Below are positions 1-37,834 of a DNA stretch of 64,000 nucleotides, one piece after another. The stretch is from positions 7,543-71,542 of the forward strand of contig CANPVP010000007.1 in the NCBI GenBank assembly GCA_947581825.1. The letters run 5' to 3'. This stretch comes from an uncultured Clostridia bacterium (GTDB lineage Bacteria; Bacillota; Clostridia; TANB77; CAG-508). Both the position numbers and the translations under genes were made by a program. Below the pieces are notes generated by a model. It was not told where the DNA came from, ran no database searches, and worked only from the letters and a program-made list of their open reading frames with translations. Within the stretch, counting starts at the first letter, position 1, and each line of letters starts with the position of its first letter.

Positions 1-3000
1 TGTAAATACTAATGGAAAATATAAAGATGGAGAGCAAACATTTACATTAGTACTAACTGAGCAAGAGAGTGGAAGATATATACCACTAGAACATGATATA
101 GAAATTGAGTATACTTGTAAATATGATACAACAAATGATAAATGGGAAACTAAGTATACAAAAGTAAAATATGGAGACAAACAGGCAGAGGTTAAAGTAC
201 AAAATAGCGAAGCACAAAATCTTACAGGTTTACTAGATACAGATGAACTAGGCTTGTATCAGAAAGGTACTGATATTTACGTAGTAAATAAACCAGACTT
301 TAATCCAGCTCAAATACTATTACAAAAGAAAGATGAAGAAGGAAATCTTATAAATGGAATTACTTTCAAAGGAAAAGTTGAGCAAGTAAATCCTATAGAA
401 GGTGAAAAAGCAGATGCTGTAAATTTCGAAGTAACAACTGGTGAATCAAAAGATGCTAATGGAAATATTCTACAAGGTGTTGCTTTAATAGATAATATAA
501 ACTTATCTAGAGAAATAAAAATTACTATAGAAAGTGAAGCATGGAAAGATAAAAATAATAAACAGCCTCTAGAGTTCCCAACAGAACCTATAGTAATTAC
601 AGGAATAGAAGTATATGATGATTGGGAAGGAAATATTGGATATAAAAAGATAAGAACAAAAGATGATAGTGGAAAGATTACTGTACAAATAGGTGAACAA
701 GAAGCACAAACAATTGATGTAAATAATAAAGACGAAGCTTCTGAAAACCTTGTATCTTTCACTGGAAATGACAGTAATGTTGTAACATTCTATATTACAA
801 ATAAAAATAAAACATATGATCTAGATGGAAAAGATGCTGATACAGGAATACCATTCCCATATAAAGTTGAAAGAGACATTTTAGGAAATGAAAAGAACGT
901 AACAGAAGGAATTACATTTACTGGAAGAATAGAAGATAGCAATGGAGAAATACTACAAGACCCAGTAACTGTACAATTTAAACAAAATGTAAATTCATCA
1001 GCAGATGGGGCAAATGGAGAAGTAGGCATTGAAGCTAAAGATATTAATGGAAAAATATCTGTAAAAGAAGGAGAACAAGAAGAAGAATATAAACTTATTA
1101 TAAAAGAAAATAATGTATCAAGTAACAACACTGATGCTGTAACAGTTATATACACTTGTAAATATAATAGCGATGAAGACGAGTTTACATCAAAAATAAA
1201 AGCCTATGAGTACAATGGAAAAAGATATGATTTTAACAAGAATATGGAAGAAGTTAAAAAAGACTTAATTCCAGGTGAAGTTAAAGATGATGGTGCAAGA
1301 ATAAATATAAATGATTTATATGTTCCTATAAGAAAATTTGATGAATATGGAAATCTAATAAATGGAGTTGTATTCAAAGGAAAAATAAAAGTAAACATAG
1401 AAAAAGATGAAAATGGACATCCAAAGGATTTTAACTTAAAAGAAGAATATGATTTTATAACAGTAACTGGTGGACAATACTGGAATGATGAAACAAAGCA
1501 GATGGAAACAGCTCCAGATGGTGTTGCAGTAATACCAATTCCAAGTGAAGTAAAAGGAGATTTCACTATAACTATTGACGAAGAATATTGGGGAACTTAC
1601 AAAGAGAATAAATGGACTACAGAAAAAGGAAAATTACCAGATGGACAATTCCCACTAGAATTTGTAAAAGGTGTAGTAGAAATAGGTGGATATGGCATTA
1701 AAGAAGAGACAAAAAATGATATAACAGAAAGAACTGTAACATATAACGGAACAACTGTTAAATATACATTAAATGGTAGTGAAGAAAATAGTGAACCTAT
1801 AGAAGTAGAAAATTATAAAGCTGTAACTACAGATGAAAAAGGTTATATTAGATTTATAAATAATGAACTTAGATATGATTTGAAAAAATCAACTGAAACA
1901 GGAGAAGGAAACAATTTATTTGATGATAAATTTTTAGAGACAAGTTATGGATATAGAACTAAAATAAAAGAAGGAATTTATTTTACAGGCTATATAGTTG
2001 ATGAAACTAAATATGATGAAAAGGGAAATATTATTAAACCTAGTGTAACATTACAAGAAGGTAGAAGTACAAAAGATCCAGAAGACAAAAATAAAGTTAC
2101 TGTTGCTTTAGATAAAGATACAGGAGCAATTGTAGCAACAGGAATTAAAGGAAGTATAGCAGGAATAGATGAAAATAAAACCTTTAAATTTGTATTAGAA
2201 GAATTAAGTTCAAATGGTGAAAATGGCACTCTTAATGTAGTACCAATAGATCCAATTGTAGTAGAATATACTTGTAAATATGATAGAGAAAATGAAAAAT
2301 TTGAAACAGCAATAACAGCATATGAATATAAAGGAAAAAAATATAGAATGTCAGATATTCAAGAACAAACAACTGTAGAAAAAGACATAATTCCTGGATT
2401 AGTATGTGTTAAAGAGGAAGAAAGTAGTATTACAGATAAAATTGGATTAATAAACCATGAAAAGACAATTGATATTCCTTTAGTTAAAAAGGATGAAGCA
2501 GGAAGATTAGTAAATGGAATTAAATTTACAGGAAAAATAATAGCATTAGACGAAGAATATAAAGACGAAAATGGAAAACCAGTATTTGAGACTACAGAGG
2601 AAACAAACAATAATGAACAACCTACAACAAAGAGAAAATCAATGAATTTTGAAGTAGTAACTGGTGAAGTTCCAACAAAAGATTCAATAAAATTAGATGG
2701 TAGCAAAAATGAAGCAAATAATAGCGAAGATAAAAACTTTACAGATGAAGATGGAAAACCAATGTATACAGCTCGTGATGGTGTTGCTTTAATACCTCAA
2801 ATTCCTTATACTGGAAAAGTTAAAATTATTATTGAAAAAGAAGAATGGGCAGATGAGGATTATAAGCCAGCTCCAGGAGATCCAGACCTTGAATTTATAG
2901 ATGGACAAATAGAAGTAACGTTTAGTATTGTCAAAGATAAAAATGGTGAAAAACACATAAATTATAATGGTGGAATGCAAATTGAAGTTAAGGATAGAAA

Positions 3001-6000
3001 TGGTCAAAATATTACAAATGACTATATGGATCCAAAGAATAATCAACACAAGATTATAGTTGGACCAAATTACTTGGGTAAAGATGAAAAAGATTTTGCT
3101 TTTGGAATTAGTGTTACAAATAAATTTAAATCTTATGATGTGCCAATAGCTCTAAAGGTAATTGAAGAAGATACAAATGCTGAAAATGAAGAAAATAATG
3201 AAAACAAAAACATTGTAACAGTAAATAATAAAAAATACAGACAACCAACAAAAGAAGAAGCAAAAGAAATTAAATTTAGAGCAGAAGTTACAGATAGTAG
3301 TGGAACTGTAGTACAAACTTTATTACCACTAACACCAGACGATATGGCAAAAGCAGATGCAGTAGGAATTGGAATTGAAGTTAAAGATATAGATAGTGAT
3401 GGCAAAGAAGAAGCTGTTATCATAGCAAAAGGTATAAAGGGAAGTATTAATAAAGGTGAAGATTTAATTATAAAATTACAAGAAGTGTATTCAGGCGGAT
3501 TAGAACCAATACCAGATATAAAAGTTCATTATAAAATTGAAAATGGTGAAGCAAAAATAACAAAATATGAATGCAATGGACAAACAGATGAATGTAAACA
3601 ACAAAATAATGGAACATGCAAGATAAAAGATTTAATTTATGTTAGCGAAGATGGTAAATATGCATTAGTAAATAAACCTGAAACAGGAGAAGGACCAAAA
3701 GAAACAACACCAATACTTACAATTAAAAAAGTAATGAATGTAGATGGACATGAGGTAGGAGTTCCAGGTATATACTTTAAAATAAGAGTATGTACTGAAG
3801 AATGTAAAAATGATTGCAAAGATCCAGATAAATGCTCTTGCCAAGAAGGTGAAGAACCATGTGAAAAATGCTTTGATTATACAGCAATTTCACAAGCATA
3901 TGGATTAACTACATTCAAACTTACAGATTTTGCAAAAAATAAAGAAGATATAACAACTGGCAAAGTAAAAGTTATTATACTAGAAGAAAGATTAGCAACA
4001 GAAGAAGACAAAGCAAAAATTAAAGAAAATTCAGAAGAAACATCAGAAGATGAGAAAACAGCAGAAGTAGCACCATATACTACTGAACAACCTGGAGAAG
4101 TTAAACTTGAATTTATTAAAAATCCAATTGTAATTAATGGAATTGAAATAAAGAATGGTGAAGAAGAAAATGGAGATAAACAATGTAAAGTAGATTATAC
4201 TAATGCTACAGTAGCTGATACAAACAGTAATGTAAGCTTTGATAATCAAGTAGGAATGCAGATTGTATTTACTAATAAAGAAGCTACATTTGATTTAGAT
4301 TTATTCAAAGGTAAAATGATTAACTATATTGGTGAATTAGAACAAATCTATAAAGGTGTAGAATTTGAAGCTGATGTAGTTAGAGCAGAAGATATAAAAG
4401 CAGAAAACATAGCAGAAGTAAGCTTACAACATATAGTTTCTACAACTGATGAATCTACTGCTGAAAATACAGGCGATAATGGAAACTTAGCTACAACTGG
4501 AATTGAGACAAATAATGGTAAAATTCAAATAAAAGGAATTAAAGGTACTTTTGCATCAGAAAGTAATGAAGAACAACAAGAAAATGCACAACAATATGCA
4601 GTGGTATTAAGAGAAACAGCATCAGAAATATCAGATGCAAAAGATATGCCAACAATGGCAATTGTATTTGAAAGTAAATGTACAACAGGAACAGACGGAA
4701 AATGCACATTCACCCCAACTATAAAAGAATATAAATGGCAAGATGATAATGGATGGCATACTTTAAATGCATTGCAAAATCTTGAACGTGATGAAAATGG
4801 CAATTTAGAACAAGTCCTTGTTACTAATAGAATGTTGAGAAAGATTGAAAATGGTAAAGAAGAAACATATATAGTTAATACACCACCAACAACAATAATT
4901 GGTGGAGGATATTTACCAACAACAGTTGATATTCCTTTAGTTAAATATGATGAAAATGGAAATTTAGTAAATGGAGTAAAATTCTCAGGACATATAGAGG
5001 TTGGTAATCAACAGAAAATGAAATTCTCAACAATAACTGGTGAAGTTCCAACAACAACAATTGCTAATGGATTTGAAAATGTATATGTAGCTCGTGATGG
5101 TGTTGCAATAATACCAAAAATTCCATTTACAGGAGAAGTTAAAGTAGTTATTGAAAAAGAGGAATGGGCTAGTGATGCTTATAAACCATCTGCAGGTTAT
5201 CCAGATCTAGAGTTTATAGATGGAAAAATAGAAATAACATTAACTATAAATGAAGATGAAAAAGGAAATAAACATATTCAACAAGGTGGCATAAGCATAG
5301 CAGTAAAAGGCAAAGACGATAAAGACATTACAGACCAATATATTGATAGAAAAAATGGTAATAATAAAGTTTTAGTTGGATTAAATAGTTTAAATAAAGA
5401 TGATAACGAAGATAACGAAGAATTATTATTCGGAATTAAAATTACTAACAAAATTAAAACTTATGATTTACCAATAGCATTAAAAGTAATTGCAGAAGAT
5501 AACGAGAATGCTAATGGAGCAAATACTATAAAAGTAGGTGATAAAACATATAGAACACCAAGCACAGAAGAAGCTAAAGAACTTAGATTTAGTGCAGAAG
5601 TTTTAGATAGTACTGGAACTGTAGTACAAAACTTATTACCATTAACACCAGAACAAATGCAAAATGCAGATGCAGTGGGAATTGGAATTGCTACTAAAGG
5701 ATCAGACAACAAAACAGAAGCTGTTATTACAGCAAAAGGAATAAAAGGAAGCATAGTAGGAGATAACTTAACGATAAGATTACACGAAGAGAATTCTGCT
5801 GGATTAGAACCAATACCAGATATAGATGTTCATTATAAAACAATTGGAGATGATGCTCCAAAAGTAACATCATATCAATGTGGTGAGAAAACAGTAGAAA
5901 ACAGTGCACCAACAAATGGTGAACAATGCAATATAGAAGATTTAATTTATGTTAGCGAAGATGGTAAATATGCATTAGTAAATAAACCTGGAACAGGAGG

Positions 6001-9000
6001 AGGACCAAAAGAAACAACACCAGAACTTACAATTAAAAAAGTAATAAATGTAGATGGACATGAAGTAGGAGTTCCAGGTGTACACTTCAAAATAAGAGTA
6101 TGTACTCCTGAATGTAAAAACGATTGTACAGATGTAGCAAAATGCGGATGTGAAAACAATAATGATTGTGATAAATGTTATGATTATGAAGCAGTTTCTA
6201 AAGCAGGTGGTTTAGCTACTTTTGAACTTACAGATTTCAGCAAAGATACAACAGCTCAAAACATTGATAATCTAAAAGTAATTATATTAGAAGAAAAATT
6301 AGCAACAGAAGAAGAGAAGGCACAACTAGCAAAAGAAGGAGTTGAACCATATACTACTGAAAACCCTGGAGATGTTAAACTTGAATTTATTAAAAATCCA
6401 ATTACAATTAATGGAATACAATTAAAGAATGCTACAGAAGGAAAAAAGACACAATGCACAGTAGATTATACTAATGCTACAGTAGCAGATGAAAATAGTA
6501 ATGTACGTATCGATAACAACGCAGGAATGCAAATTGTATTTACTAATACAGAAGCAACATATGATTTAAAATTATTTGATAGCAAACTAGTATATGAAGA
6601 TAATAAATTAAAACAAATCTATAAAGGTGTAGAATTTGAAGCTGATATAGTTAGAGTTGAAGACATAAATGCAGAAAACATAGCAGAGAAGAGTTTACAA
6701 CATTTTGTTTCTGAAAAAGCCAAAGCTACTGCTAATAACACAGGCAAAAATGGAGATTTAGGTACAGTAGGACTAGATGAAAGTAATGGTCAAATCAAGC
6801 TAAAAGGAGTTAAAGGAACTTTAGAAGGAGATAATGGACAAGAATATGCAGTTATGTTAAAAGAAACATCATCAGAAGTATCAGATGCAGACGATATGCC
6901 AACAATGGTGATTGTATATAAATGTACTTGTACAACAGATGGAAATGGAAAATGTCAATTTAAACCAGAAATCGAAGAATACAAATGGCAAGATGATGAA
7001 GGATGGCATTCTCTAAATCCAACTCAAAATATTCAAACAGGTGAGAATGGACAGATAGAAAAGAATGAAATTATTGTTGATGGTAGAGTTAAAATACAAG
7101 TATTAGACGATAATAACAAGGTAGTTTCTCTAATTAATGATGGTGGAAAAATAGAACTTTCTACTTCTGAAAGTATTAAATTAACTAAAAAGGACAGCAA
7201 TGGAAATACAGTAGGAGGTATAGAATTTAAAGGAAAAGTAATTGCTTTAAATGCTGATGGAACACCAAAGAAAGAAGCTATGTCAGATGAACAAGGAAAT
7301 ATTATACAAGGCACAAAGAATATTGAATATGAATTTGATGTAATAACTGATAATAAAGGAACAGCTTTAATATACACACCAGATGCTAAAGAAATGCCAA
7401 AATACGAAGGTAAAATTAAAGTTGTTATTGAAGATGAAAAATGGGCAGCAAGTGTAACAGAGCCACCTTATAAACTAGGCTTTGCAGATGAAATAATCGA
7501 AATCACAGGATTAGAGTTAAAAACAGAAACAACTGGACAACTAAAAAACGGAAAAATTGTACACACTAGAGTTATTTATCCAGAACAACTTACTGTAACA
7601 TCTTATAAAAAAGGAGAAAATGGAACAAAAACAGAAGCAACAAATACATACAAAGATAAGGTTTCATTAGGTAAAGATAGTGTTATAGGAATTGAAATTG
7701 AAAACTCAATTTTAGACTATGATGTAGATTTATTTGATGCAAAAATCTTAAAATATGGTGAACACTATGAACAACTAAATTCAGATGTTACATTCTCAGG
7801 AAGAATTATAGGCTACAAAGGTAAAGATTCTAAGCAAGAAGCTAAAGACTATGATGTAGAAGTTAAATTGATTGAAGAAAATGATACAACATCAGGACAA
7901 CAAGGAACAGCAAATGGTAAAAAAGGTAAAATCGTTGCAAAAGGAATAAATGGAGAAATAACAGGAAGCGGTATATACTTAGAACTAATAGAAAAATCTA
8001 TTAATTATGATGTAGAAGATGTAACAGTTATAATCAAATATGATTATACTCCTGATGCACAAGGAAAAGGTACACCAGTTATAAAAGAATATAGAAAATG
8101 GAAAGATGGTGTAAAGGGTGAAGCAAAAGGAAATGTTTCAGATAATACTACAGATTTAATTTGTAATGCAGAAGGTGATGATAATGCCAAAGCATTAATT
8201 GGTGAAATGATTTATAAAAACTATAGTGATACAGCTAAGAATAGCTTAGTAAATATAGTTACTCCAAATCCACTAGACCTTCAAATTAAAAAAGTAGATA
8301 GCAATGGAAAACCTGTTGCAGGAATTAAGTTTACAGGAAGAATAATTGCTGTAGATGATAAAGGTGAAGCTAGAAAAGAAAAAGATGCACAAGGAAAAGA
8401 AGTTGAAATCAAGAAAGAATTTACAACAAGTATAGCAAACTCAGAAGAGCCTCTACAATGGATTACATCTGATTCAGATGGTGTTGCAAGTTTACACTTA
8501 ACATCAGAAGAAGTTAATAAATTTGCAGGAAAGATTAAGATTGAAATAGACAGTGAGGAATGGAGTACAGATGAAAAAGATCCATTAAGAGTTGACTCAT
8601 CAAAACGTACACCATTAGACTTTATCGATGGAAAAATAGAAATTACTGGAAAGAAAATTGATGTTCAAAAAGATAAAACAAGTAGTATAATAAATGCTGA
8701 AAATAATGGAACACCAACAGTAAAAATTATGAAAGATAAAGAAGATGTTACTGAAAAATATAAAGATAGAGTTAATGCAAATTCAAATGAAATTGCTTTA
8801 AGCATGAAGAATATTATTAAAGAATATGATTTAAAATTATTTAATAAGAAGATTATAAATGTAAATGGAGAAGAAATACAAATTAAAGGAGCCATTACAT
8901 TTACAGGAGAAATTAAACAAAACGACCAAACATATCCTATTACTATAGCTTTTGGTCCAGAAACAGATGGTGCAATTATTGCAAAAGGTATCAGAGGAGA

Positions 9001-12000
9001 GATAGTAGGAGATAATATTAAACTTTCAGTTAAAGAAGCAAAAACAATTCCAGGAATTGTTCCAGTAGATTTTGATATAGTATATTCTTGTACATATAAT
9101 GATGGTAAGTTTGAAACAACGATATCAAAGAAAACAATTAAAGACCAAAATACAGGAGAAACTCTAAAAGAAATAAATGGAACAAATGAAAATGGAGATG
9201 TTTTAGAGGAAGACATTACAAAAGATGGTGTAGAATTACAGATTAGAAAAGTGGATGAACATAATGTACCAGTAGCAGGAATTAAATTCTCAGGAACAAT
9301 AACATCAGAAGAAAATAATGGTGGAAAAATAACATTTTCTACTAAGGCAACTGATGAAAATGGTATTACAACTATAATTATTTCAAAAGCTGATATAGAG
9401 CAATACATAAAATTAGGTAGGTTTAATGTAGTTATAGACAAAGAAGAATGGGATAATGGAGCAGAAGCAAAATGGAATGCAATAGCAGGAAATGCTGATA
9501 GAAAACTTCAATTTATAACCTCACCTGTAACAATTTCAGGTTATAAGTTATTTGAAACTTGGGATGGTAACTATGCTCATAGAAGTGTAGACTTTAGTGG
9601 AATAAGCTGTGAAGATACAGAGCATGTTGAACTAGAAAAAGATACAGTAACAATTAAATTTAAAAACAACGATTTAACATACAACATACCATTTATTAAA
9701 ACAGATAAATTATTAACTAATGATAACCAAGATAGTGCTGAAAAATTAAAAGAAGTATCATTTGATATTTCTATAAAAGAAAGTGATGAAGATAACAATC
9801 CACAAAGATTTTATACAACATCTGATGACAATGGTAGATTTGATATAGAAGGAGTTTCAAAATTTGGAGATAATGTAACTTTAACATTAAAAGAGATTAC
9901 TTCTGAAAATGAAACAGCCCAAATGCTAGATGAACCAATAATAATTACTTATAAAACTGTAATAAGTAATGGAAAAGTTTCATTAGAAAATGTAAAAATT
10001 AATGGTAAGGAAATAGATGCACCTTCTGATGATCAAGTTAATAAAACAGATATAGAAGAAGAAAAAGAAAACAATATACAAAAAATCGATGTACAACAAG
10101 ATGAAGGAATAGTGTTAGCAGGATTTAATGTTGTAAACTTTAAAAAATATAGAATTACAATAGATAAAGACTTAAAAGTTGAGGATACAACAATAGATGC
10201 AACTGAATCTGTAGGATTTAAAGGTATTATTACAACAGATCCAAGTAAAGTAAATGGCAATAATACAATTATGAGTTATAAAGATTTTGAGAGTAAGTTA
10301 GAAACATGGAAGAATAGCTCTGATAAAGATGTAATTTACTTTGATGGTCATACAACTGGTGGAAAATTAGAAATTCCAAAAGACATAGATTTCTATGATA
10401 AGCAAGTTTATGTGTACTTTATTGAGTACGATGTTCCAGCTACAATGACTGAAATTAATGAGGTTATGTGGGCATCATTCAATAAGAGAATAACAAATGC
10501 TGAGGCAAATAGTGCATCTTCAGCAGGTAATGTTGAAATTACAAATACAGATACATTAAATATAAGTATTAAAGTTGTAAACCAAGCAAAATCTTATAAT
10601 GTTAACTTTAAGAAAATAGATGCACAAGATCCAAATAGGCAAATTGACTATAGCAATGCTAAATTTACAGTACAATTAAAAGCTTTGAAAGAAGACAACT
10701 CAGCTACTGAAGTAGTTGATACAATGGATATTGAATTTAATGGATTAGGAAAAATAAAAGAACAAACAAAGCCTGGAAAATACTTAGTTGATGCAAAATT
10801 TGAAGATAATCAAATTAAAATTGATGTAAATAAATTTGGTAATTTACAATTAGTAGTAACAGAGGATAGAGCACCAGCAAATTATCAAAAACTAGATACA
10901 GATATTGTAATTAATTATAAAGCAAATGCAGAAGCATCAGAAAAAGACAAAATAATAACTGATGTTCAACTTGAAAAGAATACAAATCCAAGCATTAAAG
11001 ATAAAATAAATGCAAAACCTAATGCTAAAGGAAATGATGTAAGCTTAGACTTCACATTACCAAACTATCCAAATGAATATAGTTTAACGATTAAGAAAAA
11101 ATCTAGAACAAATCCTGACAGTATATTAAATAATATTCAATTCCAATTATTGTTCTACAAAAATAGTGATAATAAAGAGAGATTTGAATATCTAGAAAAA
11201 ACATTGTATGTTGTTAATGGAGGAAAAGTAACAGTAGATGGCTTAAAAGAATATGGTGCAAATTATATGGTACTTCATGAAACAGAAACTGATGGAAAAG
11301 TAGTTAAGCTTCCTGGATATCATGTGTTTAATGTAGAAGCAGTAGTTGGACAAAAACCAAAATTAACATACTTAGGAATGTTTAAATCAGATAAAGAAAA
11401 AGAAGCTGATTATACTATAGAAGAAATAGATAGTAAGTTTAAAGAGCAAGATATTTCTAAACTAGATAAAGCATATAGTAGTTATTTCAAAACAGATGAA
11501 AATTCTGTTGAAGTAGGAAGCTTAGTTGTTGGAAATGATGAACCAAAACTTTACGATATAGATATATTAAAAATAGCTGAAGAAAAAGATGCAAAAACTG
11601 GAAAATCAAATCCACTAGAAGGAGCAATATTTAACTTATACTTAACTAAATCAGATGAAGATTATGCAACAGGAGAGAACCTATTAGATGTTAAATATAG
11701 AAGACAAACAACACCAGTAGATGGACTTATTTCTATCAAACAATTAGATAAGTATAGCGATAAATATGGTGATTTAAAATTAACCTTAGTTGAAGAAAAA
11801 CCACCAAAAGACTATAAAACAGTATTTAGTAAAATAGAAGTAACATATAATACAACAGATGGAAAAACTATTGAAATAAAATCAATAAAAGTATTTGATG
11901 CAAATAATAAAGAAATGTCAGATTACAAAAAATATGTAAACATAACTAATGGTAGTACAGACAAGAAAATAGAAGAATCTAAAATAGAAATAAGTGTTCT

Positions 12001-15000
12001 AAATCCACATAAAAAATCAGTACCATTAGGAATAAAGAAGGTTTACTATGAAGAAACAATAGAAAATGGACAAAGAACAAAGAAAGAAAAACCTATTAGT
12101 AATGCAACATTTAGTGGTGTCGTTTATGAAATAGGTAATCCAGATGATAAAACACCATTTACATCTAAACCAACTGGAGAGGACGGTACTGTTAAGCTTG
12201 GAGACTTCTATGTTGAAGGCGAAATTGAGGTAGTAATCGAAGAAATTAGTTCACCTGATGGATTTGAAAAAATACCTAAAACTACAATAGAGTGTTATGT
12301 TGGCGAAGAAAACAAGGCTACTAAAATAGATAAAAAATATGAAATTTCTACAAATGCAATAGAGTCAATTGAATATACTAATAATATGAATCTATTAAAA
12401 GTTGTTGATACACCAATTTTTGAAACAGACATATCTTTAGCAGGTATTGTTTGGGAAGATAGACCAACAACATTAAGTGAAAAAGAAGAGGCAGATTATA
12501 CAGTAGTCGATGGAAATAAGTATGTTGCAGGAGAAGGTTTTTATGATGAAGGTATAGATAAACTTATTACAAGTAAAAATGCAGATGGTGATGCTACATC
12601 AGAAGTAAATGATGTTGTAGATGGTATGATAGTTACATTACATAAATTAGAGCGTAATGATAAAAATGAGTGGAGAGAGAAAAATGAATACACAGGTTTT
12701 GCAAAAGTAACAACTGGTGATACAGGAAGATATGAATTTAGGGAATTAGACCCATTTGCAAAATACTATATTACATTTAAAATGGAAGGTAAGTATAATT
12801 CTGAAGATTATGAGCATGTTCATTTCTTAGTAGAAAAATTAAATGTTAGCGGTGAAGGTGATAATAAAACAGTAACAATAGACGATTATAACTCAATAGT
12901 AGAAGCAAAAGCTGCAAATAATCTTGAAAGTTGGAAACGAAATTCAAAGGCAGTAGCAGATGGTGTAGAGTCTGGCAATGGCGTAGATCCAAATATTTCA
13001 ACAACAACACAAACAAGAAATGCTAGAGGAAATAAAAACGGTGTTAACAAAATGGATAATATACAAAAATATCCAGTAGATGATTACTTTACTATAGTAG
13101 ATAAAGAAAAATATATAGATGAAAACGGTGAATATAAAGGAGCTTATGTACTTTTCAATGTAGATGTAACGGATAGTCAAAAATCAAATCAAACTATTGT
13201 CTATGCAGATTACTCAACAAGCGGAAAAGAAGAAGATAAGATTGAATTTAGTTCTTTAGATCCATGGCATGACTATATAAACTATGGTATCGTTGAAAAA
13301 CCTAAATTTGATTTATCACTAAGCAAAGATGTTGAAGAACTTTCAGTTAAAGTAAATGATAAAACGATGAAATATATATATGGTAACAAGATTGATTCAG
13401 GACATATGTATACATTAGAAATTAATGAAGCAGATATATCAAAACTAGCAGATATGAAAATTATTTATAAGATAGTTGTTAAAAACGAGAGCGTTAATCC
13501 AGGATACTTAAATTCAATAGCTGATTACTACAATTCAGACCTTATGAAATTTGAAAGCTGGAGTTTAGACGGAAAAAACTACGGAAAAACTGGAGTAACT
13601 GAAACAGAAGAAACTGGTTTAGTACCTGAGCAATATATAACAGGAGTAGTTGATGCAGATGGTAATAGTACAGGTGGAACTCTAACAGTAAATGGAGCTA
13701 ATACAAAACGAGTATTAATTCAAATTCCAGATGCTGAAGAAGGTAATAAGGATAAGAATAGAACAATATATTCAGGTGATGAAAATGCTAAAACAATTCT
13801 TATAACATATCAATATGATACAAATAAATTAAAAGAAAATGATAGTTTGTTTGGTAAGATTGCTAAAGCAGGAGATTCATATGTTACATTAGGACCAGCA
13901 GAAATTTATAGCAGTAATAGTCTAGGTGGCAGAAGAGATATAAACTCAATAAATGGAAATTTATCAAGTAAATTTACTGGTATTTATAACGAGCAGTTGA
14001 AAACTTTCTACACAAATTATGATAATGAGGGTGCATATTATCAAGATTTAAGACATAGCCTTGAAGGTGAAACAGATAAAGATGATGAAGATGTAGCACC
14101 AGCATTAAAAATACTAATAGCAGATCCAGGCAATAGAAAAATAACAGGTTCAGTATTTGATGATATAGAGGGAAACGGCTGGAAAGATGAAAATGATATA
14201 AATATTAAAGGAATAAAAGTTGAATTGTATAAGTGTGATGAAAATGGCAATATTAGAGAGGATGCAAAACCTGTACAATCAACCCAAACAGATGAAGATG
14301 GAAAATATGAATTTGTAGGAATTGAAACAGGATATTACAAAGTAAAATTCACATATGGTGATGAAAATACTCTATTACCTAAATTATATACAAGTACATA
14401 CAATAATGATTTATTAAAATATGTACAAGAACTACAAGAATTACCTGAATGGAATGATGAAGAAAATAATACTATTTATCCAAGAAATAATGAAAATTCA
14501 TATAATGGATTAGAATATGAAGATTCTACTCAAAATAAAATTATAGAGTATAATAGAGGAGATGAATATTGGTATAAGCAGAATAGAGATGAGGCATATT
14601 CTGATGCTGAAGACGAAGATGCATCAAGAAAAAAAGCAGATACAACTTTAAATGAAAGCGAATATTCTACAACAACAAACTATTATTTTATGGATAATGC
14701 AAAAGCCGAATTATTGTATTCATATAGAGGCGATATAACTCAAGAAGAAGTTCAAGAATACATTAGAAAATTAAAAGAAAATTCTGTAACAGCAACAACA
14801 GAGAAATTCAAAATTAATATTATGGATACAGATAGTGACGAACTAACATATGTTACTACAACAGAGTCAGGAGAGACACAATATACAGATGGTGAACATA
14901 TAATTGATACAGGATGTGAAGCTCAAATAGACTTTGGTGTTAAGCAAAGACCAAAAACAAATCTTAAAGTTGAAAAAACTGTAGATAATGTAAAAATCTT

Positions 15001-15856
15001 TACAAGTTCTGGAAATTCTAATGTAGATGCTTCTTACAAAGATGGACGTGCAATAGGGCAAGTAGGAAGAGTACAATGGAGTAAGGATTCTATTGCAGGA
15101 GAAAATGGAAATGGCAACAGAGGATACATTTGGATACAAAGATCAGAAGAAGAAATTGTAGGTGCTACATTAGAAATTACTTATAATATAAAAGTTAAAA
15201 ACGAAGAAGATGAAGCAACTAGAAAAGATCAATGGGTAACTATTGTAGATTATGTTCAAGAGGGTATGACATATTCTGATGAGAATAATACTGGTAATGG
15301 ATGGAATCTTCAAAAGGCTACAACTAAAGACAATAAGTCTTCAATTGGTAATATTTATATAAACAAAAATATTGACTTGACAAATGTAAGCACAGTAGTA
15401 ACACAAGACGTAGAATTACAAAATGGAGAATCAAAAGATATTAAGATTACATTAACAAAAACTCTAAATTCTTATAGTAATACTGATATTGATGCATATA
15501 CAAACTATGTAGAAGTAATATTAACAGCAACACCTGATATGGCTAAGAGTGACAAGAATTCTATACCAGGAAACTTCGATCCAAGTCAAGAAACAACATT
15601 AGAAGGAAACTTAGGAACAATATATGATTTACATCAGAATAGACGTGAAATAGAAGAAATACCATATGATCACCCAACTGAAGAAAGAACAACAATGAGA
15701 TTGGAAAGAGATACAGCAAAAGCACTAGAAACAATAAGTATTACAGCGGAAACTGGTGAGAATAGAAATACAGTATATTACATCTTGGCATTCGCAATAA
15801 TAGCAGTATTTGCAACAGGTATAGGAATAATTATTAAAAAAGTAATTAAGAAATAA
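1..15856 (+). CDS. Giant cell-surface fibrillar adhesin-like protein, 5'-partial (reading frame open from nt 2 to the window edge, so the true start lies upstream of the window). Tandem SpaA/Cna-B-type isopeptide domains, SdrD-B-like domains, conserved C-terminal module and a C-terminal TM anchor.
   Basis: 15.6-kb uninterrupted ORF in frame 2 with no in-frame stop from nt 2. Recurrent Cna-B/SpaA signatures, for example KKVDSNGKPVAGIKFTG, TEDRAPANY and LVEEKPPKDY (E-x-x-AP-x-GY type). SdrD-B-like segments such as KITGSVFDDIEGNGWKDEND...TDEDGKYEF...GYYKVKF. C-terminus ends ...ITAETGENRNTVYYILAFAIIAVFATGIGIIIKKVIKK, a hydrophobic helix plus basic tail. Colinear with gene 2 from about nt 22600 onward. 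Confidence 0.85.
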   Translation, partial: VNTNGKYKDGEQTFTLVLTEQESGRYIPLEHDIEIEYTCKYDTTNDKWETKYTKVKYGDKQAEVKVQNSEAQNLTGLLDTDELGLYQKGTDIYVVNKPDFNPAQILLQKKDEEGNLINGITFKGKVEQVNPIEGEKADAVNFEVTTGESKDANGNILQGVALIDNINLSREIKITIESEAWKDKNNKQPLEFPTEPIVITGIEVYDDWEGNIGYKKIRTKDDSGKITVQIGEQEAQTIDVNNKDEASENLVSFTGNDSNVVTFYITNKNKTYDLDGKDADTGIPFPYKVERDILGNEKNVTEGITFTGRIEDSNGEILQDPVTVQFKQNVNSSADGANGEVGIEAKDINGKISVKEGEQEEEYKLIIKENNVSSNNTDAVTVIYTCKYNSDEDEFTSKIKAYEYNGKRYDFNKNMEEVKKDLIPGEVKDDGARININDLYVPIRKFDEYGNLINGVVFKGKIKVNIEKDENGHPKDFNLKEEYDFITVTGGQYWNDETKQMETAPDGVAVIPIPSEVKGDFTITIDEEYWGTYKENKWTTEKGKLPDGQFPLEFVKGVVEIGGYGIKEETKNDITERTVTYNGTTVKYTLNGSEENSEPIEVENYKAVTTDEKGYIRFINNELRYDLKKSTETGEGNNLFDDKFLETSYGYRTKIKEGIYFTGYIVDETKYDEKGNIIKPSVTLQEGRSTKDPEDKNKVTVALDKDTGAIVATGIKGSIAGIDENKTFKFVLEELSSNGENGTLNVVPIDPIVVEYTCKYDRENEKFETAITAYEYKGKKYRMSDIQEQTTVEKDIIPGLVCVKEEESSITDKIGLINHEKTIDIPLVKKDEAGRLVNGIKFTGKIIALDEEYKDENGKPVFETTEETNNNEQPTTKRKSMNFEVVTGEVPTKDSIKLDGSKNEANNSEDKNFTDEDGKPMYTARDGVALIPQIPYTGKVKIIIEKEEWADEDYKPAPGDPDLEFIDGQIEVTFSIVKDKNGEKHINYNGGMQIEVKDRNGQNITNDYMDPKNNQHKIIVGPNYLGKDEKDFAFGISVTNKFKSYDVPIALKVIEEDTNAENEENNENKNIVTVNNKKYRQPTKEEAKEIKFRAEVTDSSGTVVQTLLPLTPDDMAKADAVGIGIEVKDIDSDGKEEAVIIAKGIKGSINKGEDLIIKLQEVYSGGLEPIPDIKVHYKIENGEAKITKYECNGQTDECKQQNNGTCKIKDLIYVSEDGKYALVNKPETGEGPKETTPILTIKKVMNVDGHEVGVPGIYFKIRVCTEECKNDCKDPDKCSCQEGEEPCEKCFDYTAISQAYGLTTFKLTDFAKNKEDITTGKVKVIILEERLATEEDKAKIKENSEETSEDEKTAEVAPYTTEQPGEVKLEFIKNPIVINGIEIKNGEEENGDKQCKVDYTNATVADTNSNVSFDNQVGMQIVFTNKEATFDLDLFKGKMINYIGELEQIYKGVEFEADVVRAEDIKAENIAEVSLQHIVSTTDESTAENTGDNGNLATTGIETNNGKIQIKGIKGTFASESNEEQQENAQQYAVVLRETASEISDAKDMPTMAIVFESKCTTGTDGKCTFTPTIKEYKWQDDNGWHTLNALQNLERDENGNLEQVLVTNRMLRKIENGKEETYIVNTPPTTIIGGGYLPTTVDIPLVKYDENGNLVNGVKFSGHIEVGNQQKMKFSTITGEVPTTTIANGFENVYVARDGVAIIPKIPFTGEVKVVIEKEEWASDAYKPSAGYPDLEFIDGKIEITLTINEDEKGNKHIQQGGISIAVKGKDDKDITDQYIDRKNGNNKVLVGLNSLNKDDNEDNEELLFGIKITNKIKTYDLPIALKVIAEDNENANGANTIKVGDKTYRTPSTEEAKELRFSAEVLDSTGTVVQNLLPLTPEQMQNADAVGIGIATKGSDNKTEAVITAKGIKGSIVGDNLTIRLHEENSAGLEPIPDIDVHYKTIGDDAPKVTSYQCGEKTVENSAPTNGEQCNIEDLIYVSEDGKYALVNKPGTGGGPKETTPELTIKKVINVDGHEVGVPGVHFKIRVCTPECKNDCTDVAKCGCENNNDCDKCYDYEAVSKAGGLATFELTDFSKDTTAQNIDNLKVIILEEKLATEEEKAQLAKEGVEPYTTENPGDVKLEFIKNPITINGIQLKNATEGKKTQCTVDYTNATVADENSNVRIDNNAGMQIVFTNTEATYDLKLFDSKLVYEDNKLKQIYKGVEFEADIVRVEDINAENIAEKSLQHFVSEKAKATANNTGKNGDLGTVGLDESNGQIKLKGVKGTLEGDNGQEYAVMLKETSSEVSDADDMPTMVIVYKCTCTTDGNGKCQFKPEIEEYKWQDDEGWHSLNPTQNIQTGENGQIEKNEIIVDGRVKIQVLDDNNKVVSLINDGGKIELSTSESIKLTKKDSNGNTVGGIEFKGKVIALNADGTPKKEAMSDEQGNIIQGTKNIEYEFDVITDNKGTALIYTPDAKEMPKYEGKIKVVIEDEKWAASVTEPPYKLGFADEIIEITGLELKTETTGQLKNGKIVHTRVIYPEQLTVTSYKKGENGTKTEATNTYKDKVSLGKDSVIGIEIENSILDYDVDLFDAKILKYGEHYEQLNSDVTFSGRIIGYKGKDSKQEAKDYDVEVKLIEENDTTSGQQGTANGKKGKIVAKGINGEITGSGIYLELIEKSINYDVEDVTVIIKYDYTPDAQGKGTPVIKEYRKWKDGVKGEAKGNVSDNTTDLICNAEGDDNAKALIGEMIYKNYSDTAKNSLVNIVTPNPLDLQIKKVDSNGKPVAGIKFTGRIIAVDDKGEARKEKDAQGKEVEIKKEFTTSIANSEEPLQWITSDSDGVASLHLTSEEVNKFAGKIKIEIDSEEWSTDEKDPLRVDSSKRTPLDFIDGKIEITGKKIDVQKDKTSSIINAENNGTPTVKIMKDKEDVTEKYKDRVNANSNEIALSMKNIIKEYDLKLFNKKIINVNGEEIQIKGAITFTGEIKQNDQTYPITIAFGPETDGAIIAKGIRGEIVGDNIKLSVKEAKTIPGIVPVDFDIVYSCTYNDGKFETTISKKTIKDQNTGETLKEINGTNENGDVLEEDITKDGVELQIRKVDEHNVPVAGIKFSGTITSEENNGGKITFSTKATDENGITTIIISKADIEQYIKLGRFNVVIDKEEWDNGAEAKWNAIAGNADRKLQFITSPVTISGYKLFETWDGNYAHRSVDFSGISCEDTEHVELEKDTVTIKFKNNDLTYNIPFIKTDKLLTNDNQDSAEKLKEVSFDISIKESDEDNNPQRFYTTSDDNGRFDIEGVSKFGDNVTLTLKEITSENETAQMLDEPIIITYKTVISNGKVSLENVKINGKEIDAPSDDQVNKTDIEEEKENNIQKIDVQQDEGIVLAGFNVVNFKKYRITIDKDLKVEDTTIDATESVGFKGIITTDPSKVNGNNTIMSYKDFESKLETWKNSSDKDVIYFDGHTTGGKLEIPKDIDFYDKQVYVYFIEYDVPATMTEINEVMWASFNKRITNAEANSASSAGNVEITNTDTLNISIKVVNQAKSYNVNFKKIDAQDPNRQIDYSNAKFTVQLKALKEDNSATEVVDTMDIEFNGLGKIKEQTKPGKYLVDAKFEDNQIKIDVNKFGNLQLVVTEDRAPANYQKLDTDIVINYKANAEASEKDKIITDVQLEKNTNPSIKDKINAKPNAKGNDVSLDFTLPNYPNEYSLTIKKKSRTNPDSILNNIQFQLLFYKNSDNKERFEYLEKTLYVVNGGKVTVDGLKEYGANYMVLHETETDGKVVKLPGYHVFNVEAVVGQKPKLTYLGMFKSDKEKEADYTIEEIDSKFKEQDISKLDKAYSSYFKTDENSVEVGSLVVGNDEPKLYDIDILKIAEEKDAKTGKSNPLEGAIFNLYLTKSDEDYATGENLLDVKYRRQTTPVDGLISIKQLDKYSDKYGDLKLTLVEEKPPKDYKTVFSKIEVTYNTTDGKTIEIKSIKVFDANNKEMSDYKKYVNITNGSTDKKIEESKIEISVLNPHKKSVPLGIKKVYYEETIENGQRTKKEKPISNATFSGVVYEIGNPDDKTPFTSKPTGEDGTVKLGDFYVEGEIEVVIEEISSPDGFEKIPKTTIECYVGEENKATKIDKKYEISTNAIESIEYTNNMNLLKVVDTPIFETDISLAGIVWEDRPTTLSEKEEADYTVVDGNKYVAGEGFYDEGIDKLITSKNADGDATSEVNDVVDGMIVTLHKLERNDKNEWREKNEYTGFAKVTTGDTGRYEFRELDPFAKYYITFKMEGKYNSEDYEHVHFLVEKLNVSGEGDNKTVTIDDYNSIVEAKAANNLESWKRNSKAVADGVESGNGVDPNISTTTQTRNARGNKNGVNKMDNIQKYPVDDYFTIVDKEKYIDENGEYKGAYVLFNVDVTDSQKSNQTIVYADYSTSGKEEDKIEFSSLDPWHDYINYGIVEKPKFDLSLSKDVEELSVKVNDKTMKYIYGNKIDSGHMYTLEINEADISKLADMKIIYKIVVKNESVNPGYLNSIADYYNSDLMKFESWSLDGKNYGKTGVTETEETGLVPEQYITGVVDADGNSTGGTLTVNGANTKRVLIQIPDAEEGNKDKNRTIYSGDENAKTILITYQYDTNKLKENDSLFGKIAKAGDSYVTLGPAEIYSSNSLGGRRDINSINGNLSSKFTGIYNEQLKTFYTNYDNEGAYYQDLRHSLEGETDKDDEDVAPALKILIADPGNRKITGSVFDDIEGNGWKDENDINIKGIKVELYKCDENGNIREDAKPVQSTQTDEDGKYEFVGIETGYYKVKFTYGDENTLLPKLYTSTYNNDLLKYVQELQELPEWNDEENNTIYPRNNENSYNGLEYEDSTQNKIIEYNRGDEYWYKQNRDEAYSDAEDEDASRKKADTTLNESEYSTTTNYYFMDNAKAELLYSYRGDITQEEVQEYIRKLKENSVTATTEKFKINIMDTDSDELTYVTTTESGETQYTDGEHIIDTGCEAQIDFGVKQRPKTNLKVEKTVDNVKIFTSSGNSNVDASYKDGRAIGQVGRVQWSKDSIAGENGNGNRGYIWIQRSEEEIVGATLEITYNIKVKNEEDEATRKDQWVTIVDYVQEGMTYSDENNTGNGWNLQKATTKDNKSSIGNIYINKNIDLTNVSTVVTQDVELQNGESKDIKITLTKTLNSYSNTDIDAYTNYVEVILTATPDMAKSDKNSIPGNFDPSQETTLEGNLGTIYDLHQNRREIEEIPYDHPTEERTTMRLERDTAKALETISITAETGENRNTVYYILAFAIIAVFATGIGIIIKKVIKK
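2470..4929 (+). repeat. Intragenic tandem repeat unit, copy a (about 2.46 kb, roughly 820 aa, multi-domain module containing the 7-Cys insert).
   Basis: Begins gatattcctttagttaaa (DIPLVKKDEAG...) and is colinear, domain for domain, with nt 4930-7090. Stretches are nearly identical at nucleotide level, for example 3628-3710 versus 5938-6020. Confidence 0.8.
4930..7090 (+). repeat. Intragenic tandem repeat unit, copy b.
   Basis: Begins with the identical gatattcctttagttaaa (DIPLVKYDENG...). Same domain order as copy a: VTGEVPT..., ARDGVA.IP, KIRVC-Cys cluster, YAVxLxET..., KEYKWQDDxGWH. Confidence 0.8.
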
Positions 15857-36285: not shown

Positions 36286-36297
36286 TTACAAAATACA

Positions 36298-36326
36298 AAA
36301 TAAAGCGAGCATTGCTCGCTTTATTT
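36298..36326. terminator. Bidirectional rho-independent terminator between the convergent giant gene 2 and ttcA-like gene.
   Basis: aaataaagcgagc-att-gctcgctttattt: 13-bp perfect stem, A-rich on the 5' side and T-rich on the 3' side. Confidence 0.8.
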
Positions 36327-36334
36327 TGCATTAA

Positions 36335-37057
36335 TTATTGATCTCCCAGCTTTGCCCAACCTTTTATGTTGCTTCTTTGAATAGCACCATATAAATTTGC
36401 TCTTACTCTAGGAATATCTATTTGCATATCTCTAATTAATTGTTTCATTTTTTCTCTTGTAGTAGATCCATCCATTGGACAAACTTTAGGCATTACTTCA
36501 ATTTCATTCTTTCTAATAAATTTTCGTATATATTTTTCAGGTGTATAAATTAATGGACGAATTAATGTTATTTTTGATCTGTCCATATAAGAAGTTGGAG
36601 CAAAAGTATGAATGCTACCACCATAAAATAAATTTAATAAAAAGGTTTCAAGAACATCATCTTCATTATGACCTAAAGCAATTTTATTGCATCCTTCACG
36701 AATAGCGATGCTATTTAACATACCTCTACGTAAATTAGCACAAAGAGAACATGGATTTTTTTCTTTTCTAATATCAAAAACAATTTCTTTTATATGACCC
36801 TGTTCAATAATTAGAGGGACACCTAAATTATCACAAAAATTTTTTAAACTTGATGAATCAAAATTCTCAAAGCCAGAATCAATGGTAATAGCAATTATAT
36901 CAAATTTTTTTGGATAAAATCTTTGTAAATTTTTAAATCCCATAAGCATTGAAAGCGAATCTTTACCACCAGAAAGACCAACAGCTATTTTATCTCCTTC
37001 TTCAATCATATTATAATCTTCAATTGCTTTTCTCATATAACTTAAAATTTGTTGCAT
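36335..37057 (-). CDS. ttcA: PP-loop ATPase of the TtcA family (tRNA 2-thiocytidine biosynthesis protein-like).
   Basis: SGGKDS PP-loop motif. Cys motifs CSLCANLRRG and KVCPMDGS. 240 aa, typical for TtcA-like proteins. Confidence 0.7.
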   Translation of the reverse strand: MQQILSYMRKAIEDYNMIEEGDKIAVGLSGGKDSLSMLMGFKNLQRFYPKKFDIIAITIDSGFENFDSSSLKNFCDNLGVPLIIEQGHIKEIVFDIRKEKNPCSLCANLRRGMLNSIAIREGCNKIALGHNEDDVLETFLLNLFYGGSIHTFAPTSYMDRSKITLIRPLIYTPEKYIRKFIRKNEIEVMPKVCPMDGSTTREKMKQLIRDMQIDIPRVRANLYGAIQRSNIKGWAKLGDQ

Positions 37058-37135
37058 AAAAACTCCTTAAATACTTAATAATTAAATACAATGTACAATA
37101 TATTTATTAGAAAGTCAAGAAACGACATAATTGGG

Positions 37136-37174
37136 GACGTAGTAAAATGGCAATATTTTACTACGTCTTTTGTT
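37136..37174 (+). terminator. Orphan terminator-like hairpin (13-bp perfect stem plus T-run) upstream of tRNA-Arg.
   Basis: gacgtagtaaaat-ggcaat-attttactacgtc followed by ttttgtt. There is no plus-strand gene upstream. Confidence 0.45.
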
Positions 37175-37230
37175 ATAAAAAAACTTGCTTTTTAAAATTA
37201 GTTGTAGTATGATATAAAAATGAATTAAAT

Positions 37231-37306
<76 letters not shown>

Positions 37307-37812: not shown

Positions 37813-37834
37813 TATAAGAATAAGAGGAGTTTTT

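Follow-up and report, generated by a model that had tools for sequence, protein, structure and literature searches.

The window analysed here, a stretch of 64,000 nucleotides from an uncultured Clostridia bacterium, carries two adjacent genes for giant surface proteins in which a cluster of seven cysteines (Cys7) fills a hypervariable loop joining two strands of one beta-sandwich module. This Cys7 motif is real, new and narrow in its distribution. What holds the loop together is probably either bound metal ions or disulfides; on indirect grounds we favour metal over a disulfide knot. Metal binding, the identity of the metal and the role of the loop are what we infer from sequences and predicted structures. 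The features discussed below are the following:

2..15856, + strand: gene 1, giant surface protein with two Cys7 clusters, no in-frame stop from base 2
3572..3619, + strand: nearby Cys triplet CNGQTDECKQQNNGTC in the module before cluster 1a, present in gene-1-type proteins only and absent in gene 2
3686..4174, + strand: host beta-sandwich module ("A-domain") of cluster 1a (AlphaFold2 model, paralogous-module HMM)
3791..3871, + strand: Cys7 cluster 1a of gene 1, CTEECKNDCKDPDKCSCQEGEEPCEKC
4679..4705, + strand: nearby hairpin pair CTTGTDGKC in the module after cluster 1a
5996..6469, + strand: host module of cluster 1b (paralogous-module HMM)
6101..6178, + strand: Cys7 cluster 1b of gene 1, CTPECKNDCTDVAKCGCENNNDCDKC
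15734..15856, + strand: C-terminal anchor of gene 1, ISITAETGENRNTVYY followed by a hydrophobic stretch and then KKVIKK
16246..36285, + strand: gene 2, giant surface protein of 6,679 aa with one Cys7 cluster
26296..26691, + strand: host beta-sandwich module of gene 2, fourth of seven A-domains (AlphaFold2, paralog HMM)
26407..26478, + strand: Cys7 cluster of gene 2, CGSCEKECAKDPLKCTCGDDCTKC
36163..36285, + strand: C-terminal anchor of gene 2, with the same architecture as in gene 1

The Cys7 clusters and the proteins that carry them

The three peptides that the initial annotation had quoted were all found, 1a lying within the claimed 3775-3885 and in the frame of the long ORF. The clusters span 24-27 residues with 7 Cys each (26-29% Cys), in proteins that contain 36 Cys in 5,284 aa (gene 1) and 29 Cys in 6,679 aa (gene 2). 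A chance origin is excluded, since no 27-residue window exceeded 5 Cys in 5,000 shuffles of each protein, compared with the 7 observed three times. The only ORFs overlapping the Cys7 site are antisense and short (60 aa or less). The spacing C-x3-C-x3-C-x5-C-x-C-x(3-6)-C-x2-C, which had been attributed to all the copies, describes the two of gene 1, but the cluster of gene 2 reads C-x2-C-x3-C-x6-C-x-C-x3-C-x2-C, and what is invariant across the copies is C2-x3-C3, C4-x-C5 and C6-x2-C7. The interior between C1 and C7 lacks F, Y, W and H, having neither aromatics nor large hydrophobics in the cluster peptides compared, and the loop is strongly acidic.

Clusters 1a and 1b had been assigned to separate genes, but they are two repeats within one ORF that is free of stops from 2 to 15856. 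At least 5,284 aa of this protein are encoded in the window, whose left edge cuts the 5' end of the gene, and the whole protein has 7,309 aa in the source contig, the length called in ENA contigs L002-L004. The module of cluster 1b lies within the second copy of an old 770-aa tandem duplication. The whole-protein Pfam scan matched gene 1 only at an SdrD_B domain near the C-terminus, and in gene 2 SdrD_B is likewise found near the C-terminus only, far from the clusters in both proteins.

The gene 2 protein is identical to the database protein P0002. Its N-terminus is a signal or an anchor, and at its C-terminus an xAETGEN motif precedes a hydrophobic stretch and a basic tail. The C-terminal motif I-T-A-E-T-G, with its hydrophobic segment and KKVIKK tail, is LAXTG-like and not LPXTG, and the C-terminus of gene 1 can likewise be read as a putative LAXTG-like sorting signal. 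The LPXTG-anchor models of NCBIfam did not match gene 2, and no sortase gene was found within the window. The idea that the cluster sits at the tip of a loop anchored at both ends was rejected, because the N-terminal hydrophobic segment appears to resemble a cleavable signal peptide (VMA-HG).

Outside the clusters, each protein contains 10-16 lone Cys that are more than 60 residues away from any other Cys, several of them within a recurring strand motif Y[TS]C[KTS]Y[DN], and the non-cluster Cys are kept between orthologs at 14/20 and 13/16 aligned positions. The Cys pairs near the clusters, which had been proposed as conserved, do exist (3572-3619 and 4679-4705), but neither is conserved: gene 2 has 0 Cys at the first site and 1 Cys at the second, and in the gene-1 ortholog P0001 an Asn replaces the distal Cys of the second pair. 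The C-x7-C hairpins near the clusters in gene-1-type proteins resemble disulfide staples.

The host module, its conservation and its distribution

The AlphaFold2 model of the 1a module (m2bb08f336bce) has a pLDDT of 73 and strands at residues 10-14, 29-37, 62-68, 74-78, 92-103 and 148-155. Cluster 1a occupies residues 36-62, with 10-residue block-mean pLDDT values of 73-89 and no regular secondary structure. In the AlphaFold2 model of the gene 2 module (m71ddcebeb918; pLDDT 70), the strands are in the 80s and the cluster only at 56-60. In both adjacent genes the cluster lies in module four of a paralogous set of seven, and the loops of the remaining six are free of Cys and variable in length. 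The proposed insertion into a beta-sandwich is thus supported, since the cluster lies between two confident AlphaFold2 strands and the paralogous modules have Cys-free loops there.

The description of this domain as Cna-B-like could be sustained only weakly. Its best structural neighbours in Foldseek are CnaB-type pilins, although the best of them, SpaD, has a non-significant E of 0.05, and no Pfam match reached the threshold. Whole-protein Pfam scans gave no match to Cna_B or SpaA (PF05738, PF17802) at the cluster modules, and when 16 isolated modules were compared with Pfam, SpaA appeared on 2 of them with a best E of 0.01, under threshold. At the isopeptide-triad positions, the first-strand Lys and the Glu are invariant in 16/16 modules and the last-strand Asn/Asp is missing in several. 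No profile-profile relation was detected by hhalign between the host module and the SdrD_B domain (PF17210) of the same proteins (probability 0.2%).

Orthologs lacking these cysteines had been named as the finding that would count against the cluster; all the relatives found keep 7/7 Cys, i.e., the gene-2 ortholog (62% overall identity), the gene-1 ortholog (63%) and the internal duplicate (53%). When five distinct copies, taken from three organisms, are compared, nothing in the loop is invariant except the seven Cys and two Lys (K-C4 and K-C7), and the comparison also shows an Arg two residues before C1. The lengths between Cys vary among the copies, and just 8/17 of the non-Cys loop residues are identical between gene 2 and its ortholog, against the 62% overall identity. 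The 90% clusters of the two database relatives contain near-identical members only and thus no informative variants. Exported Firmicutes proteins are usually depleted in cysteine. For this reason, a seven-Cys loop that is strictly conserved and lies midway along proteins of 6,700-7,300 residues is a deliberate feature.

Proteins bearing Cys7 were found in three related uncultured gut bacteria only, in a search covering 1.8 billion representative proteins, GTDB genomes, JGI metagenomes and IMG/VR. Neither Pfam, NCBIfam nor PDB contains a family matching the cluster, using whole proteins, modules or cluster peptides as queries. The five cluster peptides retrieved from Pfam, at E values up to 10, no metallothionein but only noise (DUF3079, MiAMP1, DUF326), and they did not match its Fe-S families. 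PDB sequence searches with the module, a 16-module profile and a cluster-only profile gave nothing meaningful. The word-indexed protein search with the 170-aa module or a 4-sequence alignment returned 0 matches, not even the query proteins themselves, the peptide-pattern scan of JGI metagenomes none, and the scan of IMG/VR none. The 120 JGI loci matching the DNA pattern R-V-C..C..C..K-C-x-C were discarded as TG-repeat or out-of-frame noise after translation and tblastn, and a heme CxxCK site was rejected because it is found only in the gene-2 copies.

Proposed metal binding or disulfides in the Cys7 loop

We tentatively read the Cys7 stretch as a metallothionein-like metal-thiolate knob, probably with two Zn, that would rigidify the loop. 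It may form a self-contained mini-domain, with two Zn(II) on seven thiolates, one of them bridging, or a small Cu(I) cluster, and it takes the place of the hypervariable loop joining strands two and three of the fourth module, in what is presumably the stalk of giant C-terminally anchored surface fibres. Once exported by Sec, the unfolded loop could take up metal from the lumen and collapse, giving a stiff and highly charged knob at the flank of the stalk. Through this knob, one module might offer a defined surface for recognition or for contact between fibres, and no oxidising folding system would be needed.

The main rival is a knot of three intramolecular disulfides (e.g., 1-4, 2-5 and 3-6) that leaves the seventh Cys free and makes a protease-resistant knob, a possible but rather doubtful reading. 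Several observations separate the two. The compositional signature of metallothioneins is about 30% Cys, with C-x-C, C-x2-C and C-x3-C spacings and no aromatics, and the Cys7 loop agrees with it in having 7 Cys per 24-27 residues with invariant C-x-C and C-x2-C. A Lys beside a Cys is another metallothionein hallmark, thought to offset the thiolate charge; the two invariant Lys that precede Cys thus favour metal, whereas a disulfide knot has no such need and leaves them unexplained. The strictly conserved odd number of seven does not sit easily with an all-disulfide fold but is unremarkable in metal clusters, as in HIV-1 Tat, which has seven Cys and binds two Zn in vitro (PMC2483996). The many lone, largely conserved Cys of the same exported proteins suggest that exported free thiols are tolerated, pointing to a reducing exterior, and they speak against the knot. 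In the same direction, the source is a gut MAG, labelled Clostridia by a single MAG title, from an anaerobic habitat, and Firmicutes generally avoid disulfides in exported proteins (PMC2823432). The drift of the non-Cys residues and the varying lengths suggest that the fold of the loop is dictated by Cys ligands and not by packing, although Cys-only conservation with drifting loops would also suit small disulfide-rich domains. The defined non-regular conformation predicted for the gene-1 cluster also counts for metal, whereas the low AlphaFold2 confidence of the gene-2 cluster counts against it.

Other points weigh against metal or for the knot. The cluster has no His, and no known metal-binding family of Pfam, NCBIfam or PDB profiles matches it; in addition, an acidic loop would add negative charge to a Zn-thiolate cluster. 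With C-x(2-3)-C-x3-C-x(5-6)-C-x-C-x(3-6)-C, the clusters come near the inhibitor-cystine-knot consensus, but only the gene-1 copies fit, and loosely; the x2 and x6 of the gene-2 copies are beyond the usual ranges, and the seventh Cys is extra. The staple-like hairpins near the gene-1 clusters also suit disulfides, but these pairs, as described above, lack conservation. Weak as the structural match is, the SpaD pilin comes closest to the host module, and actinobacterial pilins of this class have disulfide-stabilised domains. Some Clostridia, moreover, encode functional DsbA/VKOR homologues (PMC12453122). An eighth ligand for the metal was sought and rejected both in the nearby Cys pairs, because they are not conserved, and in the single Cys after the cluster module, which is a generic lone Cys of the recurring strand motif.

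The odd Cys count could also mean that the cluster is incomplete alone and pairs, through a shared metal or disulfide, with the cluster on an adjacent fibre (gene 1 to gene 2, or each to itself), so that fibres would be tied to one another at a fixed height above the cell, which we regard as unlikely. The genes are adjacent, each has a cluster in the fourth of seven modules, and the distances from the cluster to the C-terminal anchor are nearly equal (3,250 aa for gene 1 copy b, 3,291 aa for gene 2 and 3,331 aa for P0001), but equal height follows trivially from the common ancestry of the architectures. As precedents, a metal-linked Tat dimer through the Cys-rich region has been proposed and debated (PMC2483996), and minicollagen CX3CX3C-type domains polymerise through disulfide exchange (PMC4863159). 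However, the second copy of gene 1, 770 aa higher, has no partner in gene 2, and a single node per fibre of 6,700-7,300 aa is a weak tie. Quite unlikely, too, is that the loop forms one half of a metal (or disulfide) hook between molecules, in which an eighth ligand from a partner would complete two tetrahedral sites, so that metal available in the gut lumen zips the fibres into a cross-linked coat or into cell-cell aggregation; as an extracellular device built on Cys, it would parallel the Rad50 zinc hook or the staphylococcal zinc zipper. We consider very improbable a redox or reactive-thiol site, that is, an Fe-S cluster or the covalent capture of host or particle ligands by thiol-disulfide exchange with mucins or by metal-sulfide binding. 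Seven Cys is the ligand count of 7Fe ferredoxins, a CX3CX3C string appears in ferredoxin motif classifications, and the habitat is anaerobic, but the loop has neither a ferredoxin-like spacing (no CxxCxxCxxxCP) nor a hydrophobic shell around it, it is exposed and of 24-27 residues, no Fe-S family of Pfam matches it, and pre-assembled Fe-S clusters are impossible in Sec-exported giant proteins.

Metal binding, if it occurs, would make the Cys7 loop an extracellular module of metallothionein type within an adhesin stalk. An anaerobe would then have a new means of stiffening a surface fibre, or of giving it a function, without oxidative folding. The loop is also compact (~25 residues) and hence a candidate for engineering metal binding into a beta-sandwich scaffold. 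Its very restricted occurrence, in three related uncultured species, limits its impact, and its role is putative.

Comparison with known systems

Metallothioneins (the mammalian beta-domain M3Cys9; bacterial SmtA/BmtA) resemble the Cys7 loop in their ~27% Cys, their C-x-C, C-x2-C and C-x3-C spacings, the lack of aromatics, the Lys adjacent to Cys and the conservation of Cys only. They differ in being free small cytosolic proteins, and not a loop of 24-27 residues in an extracellular beta-sandwich that has seven Cys, no Pfam metallothionein match and a putative metal binding. Zinc binding by HIV-1 Tat also uses a His. Its Cys-rich region (residues 22-37) likewise has seven Cys in a short, solvent-exposed and otherwise unstructured stretch (PMC2483996), but Tat is an intracellular viral regulator unrelated in sequence, spacing and biology. 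The minicollagen CX3CX3CX3CX3CC domains are also short extracellular Cys-only modules on a fibrous protein, where they cross-link fibres through disulfide exchange (PMC4863159), and they begin with CX3CX3C as the gene-1 copies do, whereas the gene-2 copies start with CX2CX3C; they have six Cys, a terminal position and a eukaryotic secretory pathway with oxidative folding.

The prealbumin-like CnaB/SpaA stalk domains (SpaD, SpaB, BcpA, GBS52) share with the host module a seven-strand-type sandwich repeated in a surface fibre, in Gram-positive pilins and MSCRAMMs, and genes 1 and 2 do contain a true SdrD_B domain. They differ in that the host module has no Pfam match at threshold, a non-significant Foldseek hit and an isopeptide triad not conserved throughout, and CnaB/SpaA-type members are not known to carry more than a single disulfide, or any Cys7 loop. 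The G5-E repeats of staphylococcal SasG/Aap are repetitive stalk modules of giant Gram-positive surface proteins with metal-dependent behaviour, mediating zinc-dependent adhesion. Zinc is bound between their chains by His, Asp and Glu, and this in every repeat; they have no Cys and no relation in sequence or fold to the Cys7 module, but are a possible functional analogy for fibre-fibre contact.

The giant proteins and their seven-cysteine clusters

The window, with a G+C content of about 29%, carries two genes that encode giant surface proteins. The gene 1 ORF extends from base 2 to 15856 without an in-frame stop, the window beginning inside it, and the full-length gene in the source contigs encodes 7,309 aa. 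It is followed by gene 2 (16246-36285), an ORF of 6,679 aa whose product is identical to the database protein P0002. The N-terminus of gene 2 shows a basic-hydrophobic segment ending in VMA-HG, which is probably a signal peptide. The C-termini of both giants (15734-15856 and 36163-36285) have SITAETGEN followed by a hydrophobic stretch of about 20 residues and, at the end, KKVIKK, an architecture resembling a sorting signal with an LAXTG-like, not LPXTG, motif. The giants were matched neither by the NCBIfam anchor model nor by any other NCBIfam model, and no sortase gene was found in the window. Pfam detected a single SdrD_B domain near each C-terminus and nothing else, leaving the first 3,333 residues of gene 2 without a match. 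The N-terminal head of gene 2 (residues 50-72; window 16393-16461) contains a conserved motif, YCREH(x16-19)YxCVGE, that is common to gene 2 and P0001, an ortholog of gene 1, despite their low overall similarity, and that may have a catalytic or a structural role as a Cys/His site.

A Cys-pattern scan of both translated ORFs yielded exactly three matches to the seven-cysteine (Cys7) cluster:

3791-3871, + strand, Cys7 cluster, gene 1 copy a, CTEECKNDCKDPDKCSCQEGEEPCEKC
6101-6178, + strand, Cys7 cluster, gene 1 copy b, CTPECKNDCTDVAKCGCENNNDCDKC
26407-26478, + strand, Cys7 cluster, gene 2, CGSCEKECAKDPLKCTCGDDCTKC

The three peptides and their positions agree with the initial annotation; what it had named gene 1a and gene 1b are two repeats within one gene. 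The whole-protein Cys content of the giants is 0.4-0.7%, and shuffling (5,000 permutations per protein) never placed more than 5 Cys in a 27-residue window, while 7 were observed three times. Only short antisense ORFs (≤60 aa) overlap the Cys7 site.

Distribution, conservation and host module of the cluster

The Cys7 protein family is extremely narrow. A HMMER search of 1.84 billion representative proteins, with a profile of the three copies as query, gave P0002, P0001 (6,806 aa, found in a different ENA assembly), a single weak match that is spurious, and no others. When one genome was scanned for each GTDB species, a single locus emerged, L001, which belongs to a MAG from rabbit gut (title 'uncultured Clostridia bacterium') and carries an ortholog of gene 2 (L001p). 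No real match was obtained in JGI metagenomes (two scans) or IMG/VR (one scan), nor any match whatsoever in a word-indexed protein search, and P0001 and P0002 have only near-identical sequences in their 90% clusters.

We compared five distinct cluster sequences, i.e., the three window copies and those of P0001 (CTEECKNDCKNLDKCSCDENTEKCEKC) and L001 (CGKCEHECDKDPEKCICGNECDKC). The seven Cys are invariant in all five; orthologs lacking them, which the initial annotation would have taken as a refutation, are absent among the relatives found. Between C1 and C7 the only other invariant residues are two Lys, each directly before a Cys (K-C4 and K-C7), and R-V immediately precedes C1. The gaps C2-x3-C3, C4-x-C5 and C6-x2-C7 are fixed, whereas C1-C2 (2-3), C3-C4 (5-6) and C5-C6 (3-6) vary. 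Overall identity is 61.6% between gene 2 and L001p and 62.6% between gene 1 and P0001. In the loop of gene 2 and L001p 8 of the 17 non-Cys residues are identical, so the constraint rests on Cys. However, conservation is also fairly good for Cys elsewhere in the proteins (14/20 and 13/16 kept), and therefore the stronger argument is the retention of the seven cluster Cys across paralogs (the cluster modules of gene 1 and gene 2 are 39% identical) and across an old duplication. Gene 1 contains a tandem duplication of a 770-aa unit (window 3002-5311 and 5312-7621), which explains why it has two Cys7 clusters and P0001 one. Identity is 53% between the two units and about 50% between each of them and the single unit of P0001, indicating that the duplication is old, and both copies have kept all seven Cys.

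A module HMM, for which the cluster-bearing segments and weak internal matches served as input, showed that each protein contains a series of paralogous modules, about 150 aa long and some 350-400 aa apart. Their consensus begins with L-x-I-K-K-x-D-x-x-G-x-x-V-x-G-I-x-F-x-G-x-V and, after a loop, continues with G-V-A, G-x-x-K-V-x-I-x-x-E-E-W and L-E-F-I-x-x-P-I-x-I-x-G. The loop, which joins the 'GIKFxGxV' strand to the next one, is hypervariable, both in its length and in its sequence, and contains no Cys, with a single exception: one module has the Cys7 stretch at this position. Among the seven modules that score well in gene 2, in L001p and in P0001, this is the fourth. The Lys of the first strand (IKK) and a Glu of the 'IxxEEW' strand are invariant in 16/16 modules (the gene 2 module at window 26296-26691 and its 15 paralogs), and the last strand often has an Asn or Asp, missing in several of the 16; this set might form an intramolecular triad, of either the isopeptide or the ester kind. 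Before the cluster module, the P0001 linker (residues ~3420-3470) has a poly-proline run, PPPPPPPGP, where gene 1 (window 3644-3700) has GEGPKETTP, and the first loop of P0001 has a 20-residue Asn/Glu-rich insertion. The long acidic linker after the cluster module is predicted, with low confidence, to be partly helical.

Structure prediction, as proposed in the initial annotation, gave a beta-sandwich with confident strands on either side of the cluster in both modules modelled, from alignments of paralogs and relatives only:

gene 2 module: mean pLDDT 70; cluster residues 38-61, pLDDT 56-60
gene 1a module: mean pLDDT 73; cluster residues 36-62, pLDDT 73-89 (10-residue block means)

The cluster of the gene 1a model is devoid of regular secondary structure. 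The domain had been called Cna-B-like. Foldseek found no significant match for the module models in the PDB; a second Foldseek list was headed, non-significantly, by the CnaB-type pilins SpaD (E 0.052, prob 0.84), SpaB, BcpA and GBS52. Pfam placed SpaA and Big_1 on only 2 of the 16 modules, below threshold, the module profile matched no PDB sequence, and it was unrelated to the giants' own SdrD_B domain (hhalign probability 0.2%). Thus, 'Cna-B-like' is a reasonable guess at the fold, family membership not being demonstrated.

Possible chemistries of the cluster

Between two plausible chemistries we favour, tentatively, a metal-thiolate cluster. The composition is metallothionein-like (26-29% Cys, no aromatic or hydrophobic residues), as are the C-x-C, C-x2-C and C-x3-C spacings, and apart from Cys, conservation is limited to Lys residues next to a Cys, a feature also found in metallothioneins. 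The number of Cys is odd and strictly kept, which is unusual in disulfide folds and normal in metal clusters. Each giant also has 10-16 isolated Cys, separated from every other Cys by more than 60 residues. Several of them lie in a second module type, in which a Y[TS]C[KTS]Y[DN] strand recurs with a single conserved Cys; examples are:

116-118, + strand, gene 1, EYTCKYD
1157-1159, + strand, gene 1, IYTCKYN
22705-22707, + strand, gene 2, EYTCQPD
23776-23778, + strand, gene 2, IYTCTYD
29395-29397, + strand, gene 2, VYSCSYN

Free thiols therefore survive outside the cell, and unpaired exported thiols are the rule in these proteins, which also favours metal binding, as does the anaerobic gut habitat together with the avoidance of exported disulfides by Firmicutes as a group (PMC2823432). 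There is a precedent in HIV-1 Tat, whose seven Cys within 16 residues bind two Zn (PMC2483996). For the present cluster, the simplest stoichiometry for seven Cys would be two tetrahedrally coordinated Zn that share one thiolate as a bridge. However, the cluster matches no known metal-binding family and has no His, its spacing fits loosely an inhibitor cystine knot, and some Clostridia own functional DsbA/VKOR enzymes (PMC12453122). Of the conserved Cys pairs reported near the clusters, C-x7-C hairpins do occur in gene-1-type proteins and look like disulfide staples, yet they are not conserved. This evidence gives weight to a knot of three disulfides plus one thiol, a somewhat less probable but still serious alternative.

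That the cluster is a cross-linking site seems improbable. The odd Cys count would suit it, and the distance from the cluster to the C-terminal anchor is nearly equal in gene 1 copy b (3,250 residues), gene 2 (3,291) and P0001 (3,331), but common ancestry already accounts for this equal height. Minicollagen CX3CX3C domains, which polymerise through disulfide exchange (PMC4863159), provide a precedent. A cross-linking 'hook' is slightly less probable still, and would, if true, have considerably greater import than the other readings. An Fe-S or reactive-thiol role is very unlikely.

If the cluster binds metal, the loop would fold around it after Sec export, giving one specific module of the stalk a knob that is rigid and charged, perhaps for recognition or fibre-fibre contact. 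In its working, the loop most resembles a Cys-rich metal site such as those of metallothioneins or Tat, or else a mini cystine knot, grafted into the stalk module of a fibrillar surface protein of Gram-positive style; the tests run placed it in none of these families. As a sequence motif Cys7 is new, while the underlying concept, in which a Cys-rich insert stabilises an extracellular sandwich, is a variant on known themes. The narrow distribution limits the weight of the finding.

Genomic surroundings of the giant genes

The giants are followed by housekeeping genes (tilS-like, deaminase, dnaX, ybaB, recR and rpoB), and thus they are chromosomal. Rfam identified two RNAs in the window, both far downstream of the clusters:

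37231-37303, + strand, tRNA
38954-39053, + strand, SRP RNA, small bacterial type (RF00169, 59.5 bits)

The large type of SRP RNA is the one found in Bacillus and Clostridium, so it may be worth checking whether the related MAG is rightly labelled 'Clostridia'.

One of four same-strain ENA assemblies splits gene 1 into two ORF calls of 4,231 and 3,000 aa in place of the 7,309 aa (L005 1-9611, compared with L002-L004 1-9611), through a frameshift, a strain variant or an assembly error. In L006, the locus with P0001 in a second organism, this gene is preceded by a giant gene (6,682 aa; 1-8125) and a PDDEXK_2 transposase-like gene (8583-9446), the former probably being the gene 2 counterpart with its cluster region beyond the locus, and is followed by a 2,738-aa GH94-family protein (30542-38758). 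The surroundings of the giant genes are therefore ordered differently from those in the window.
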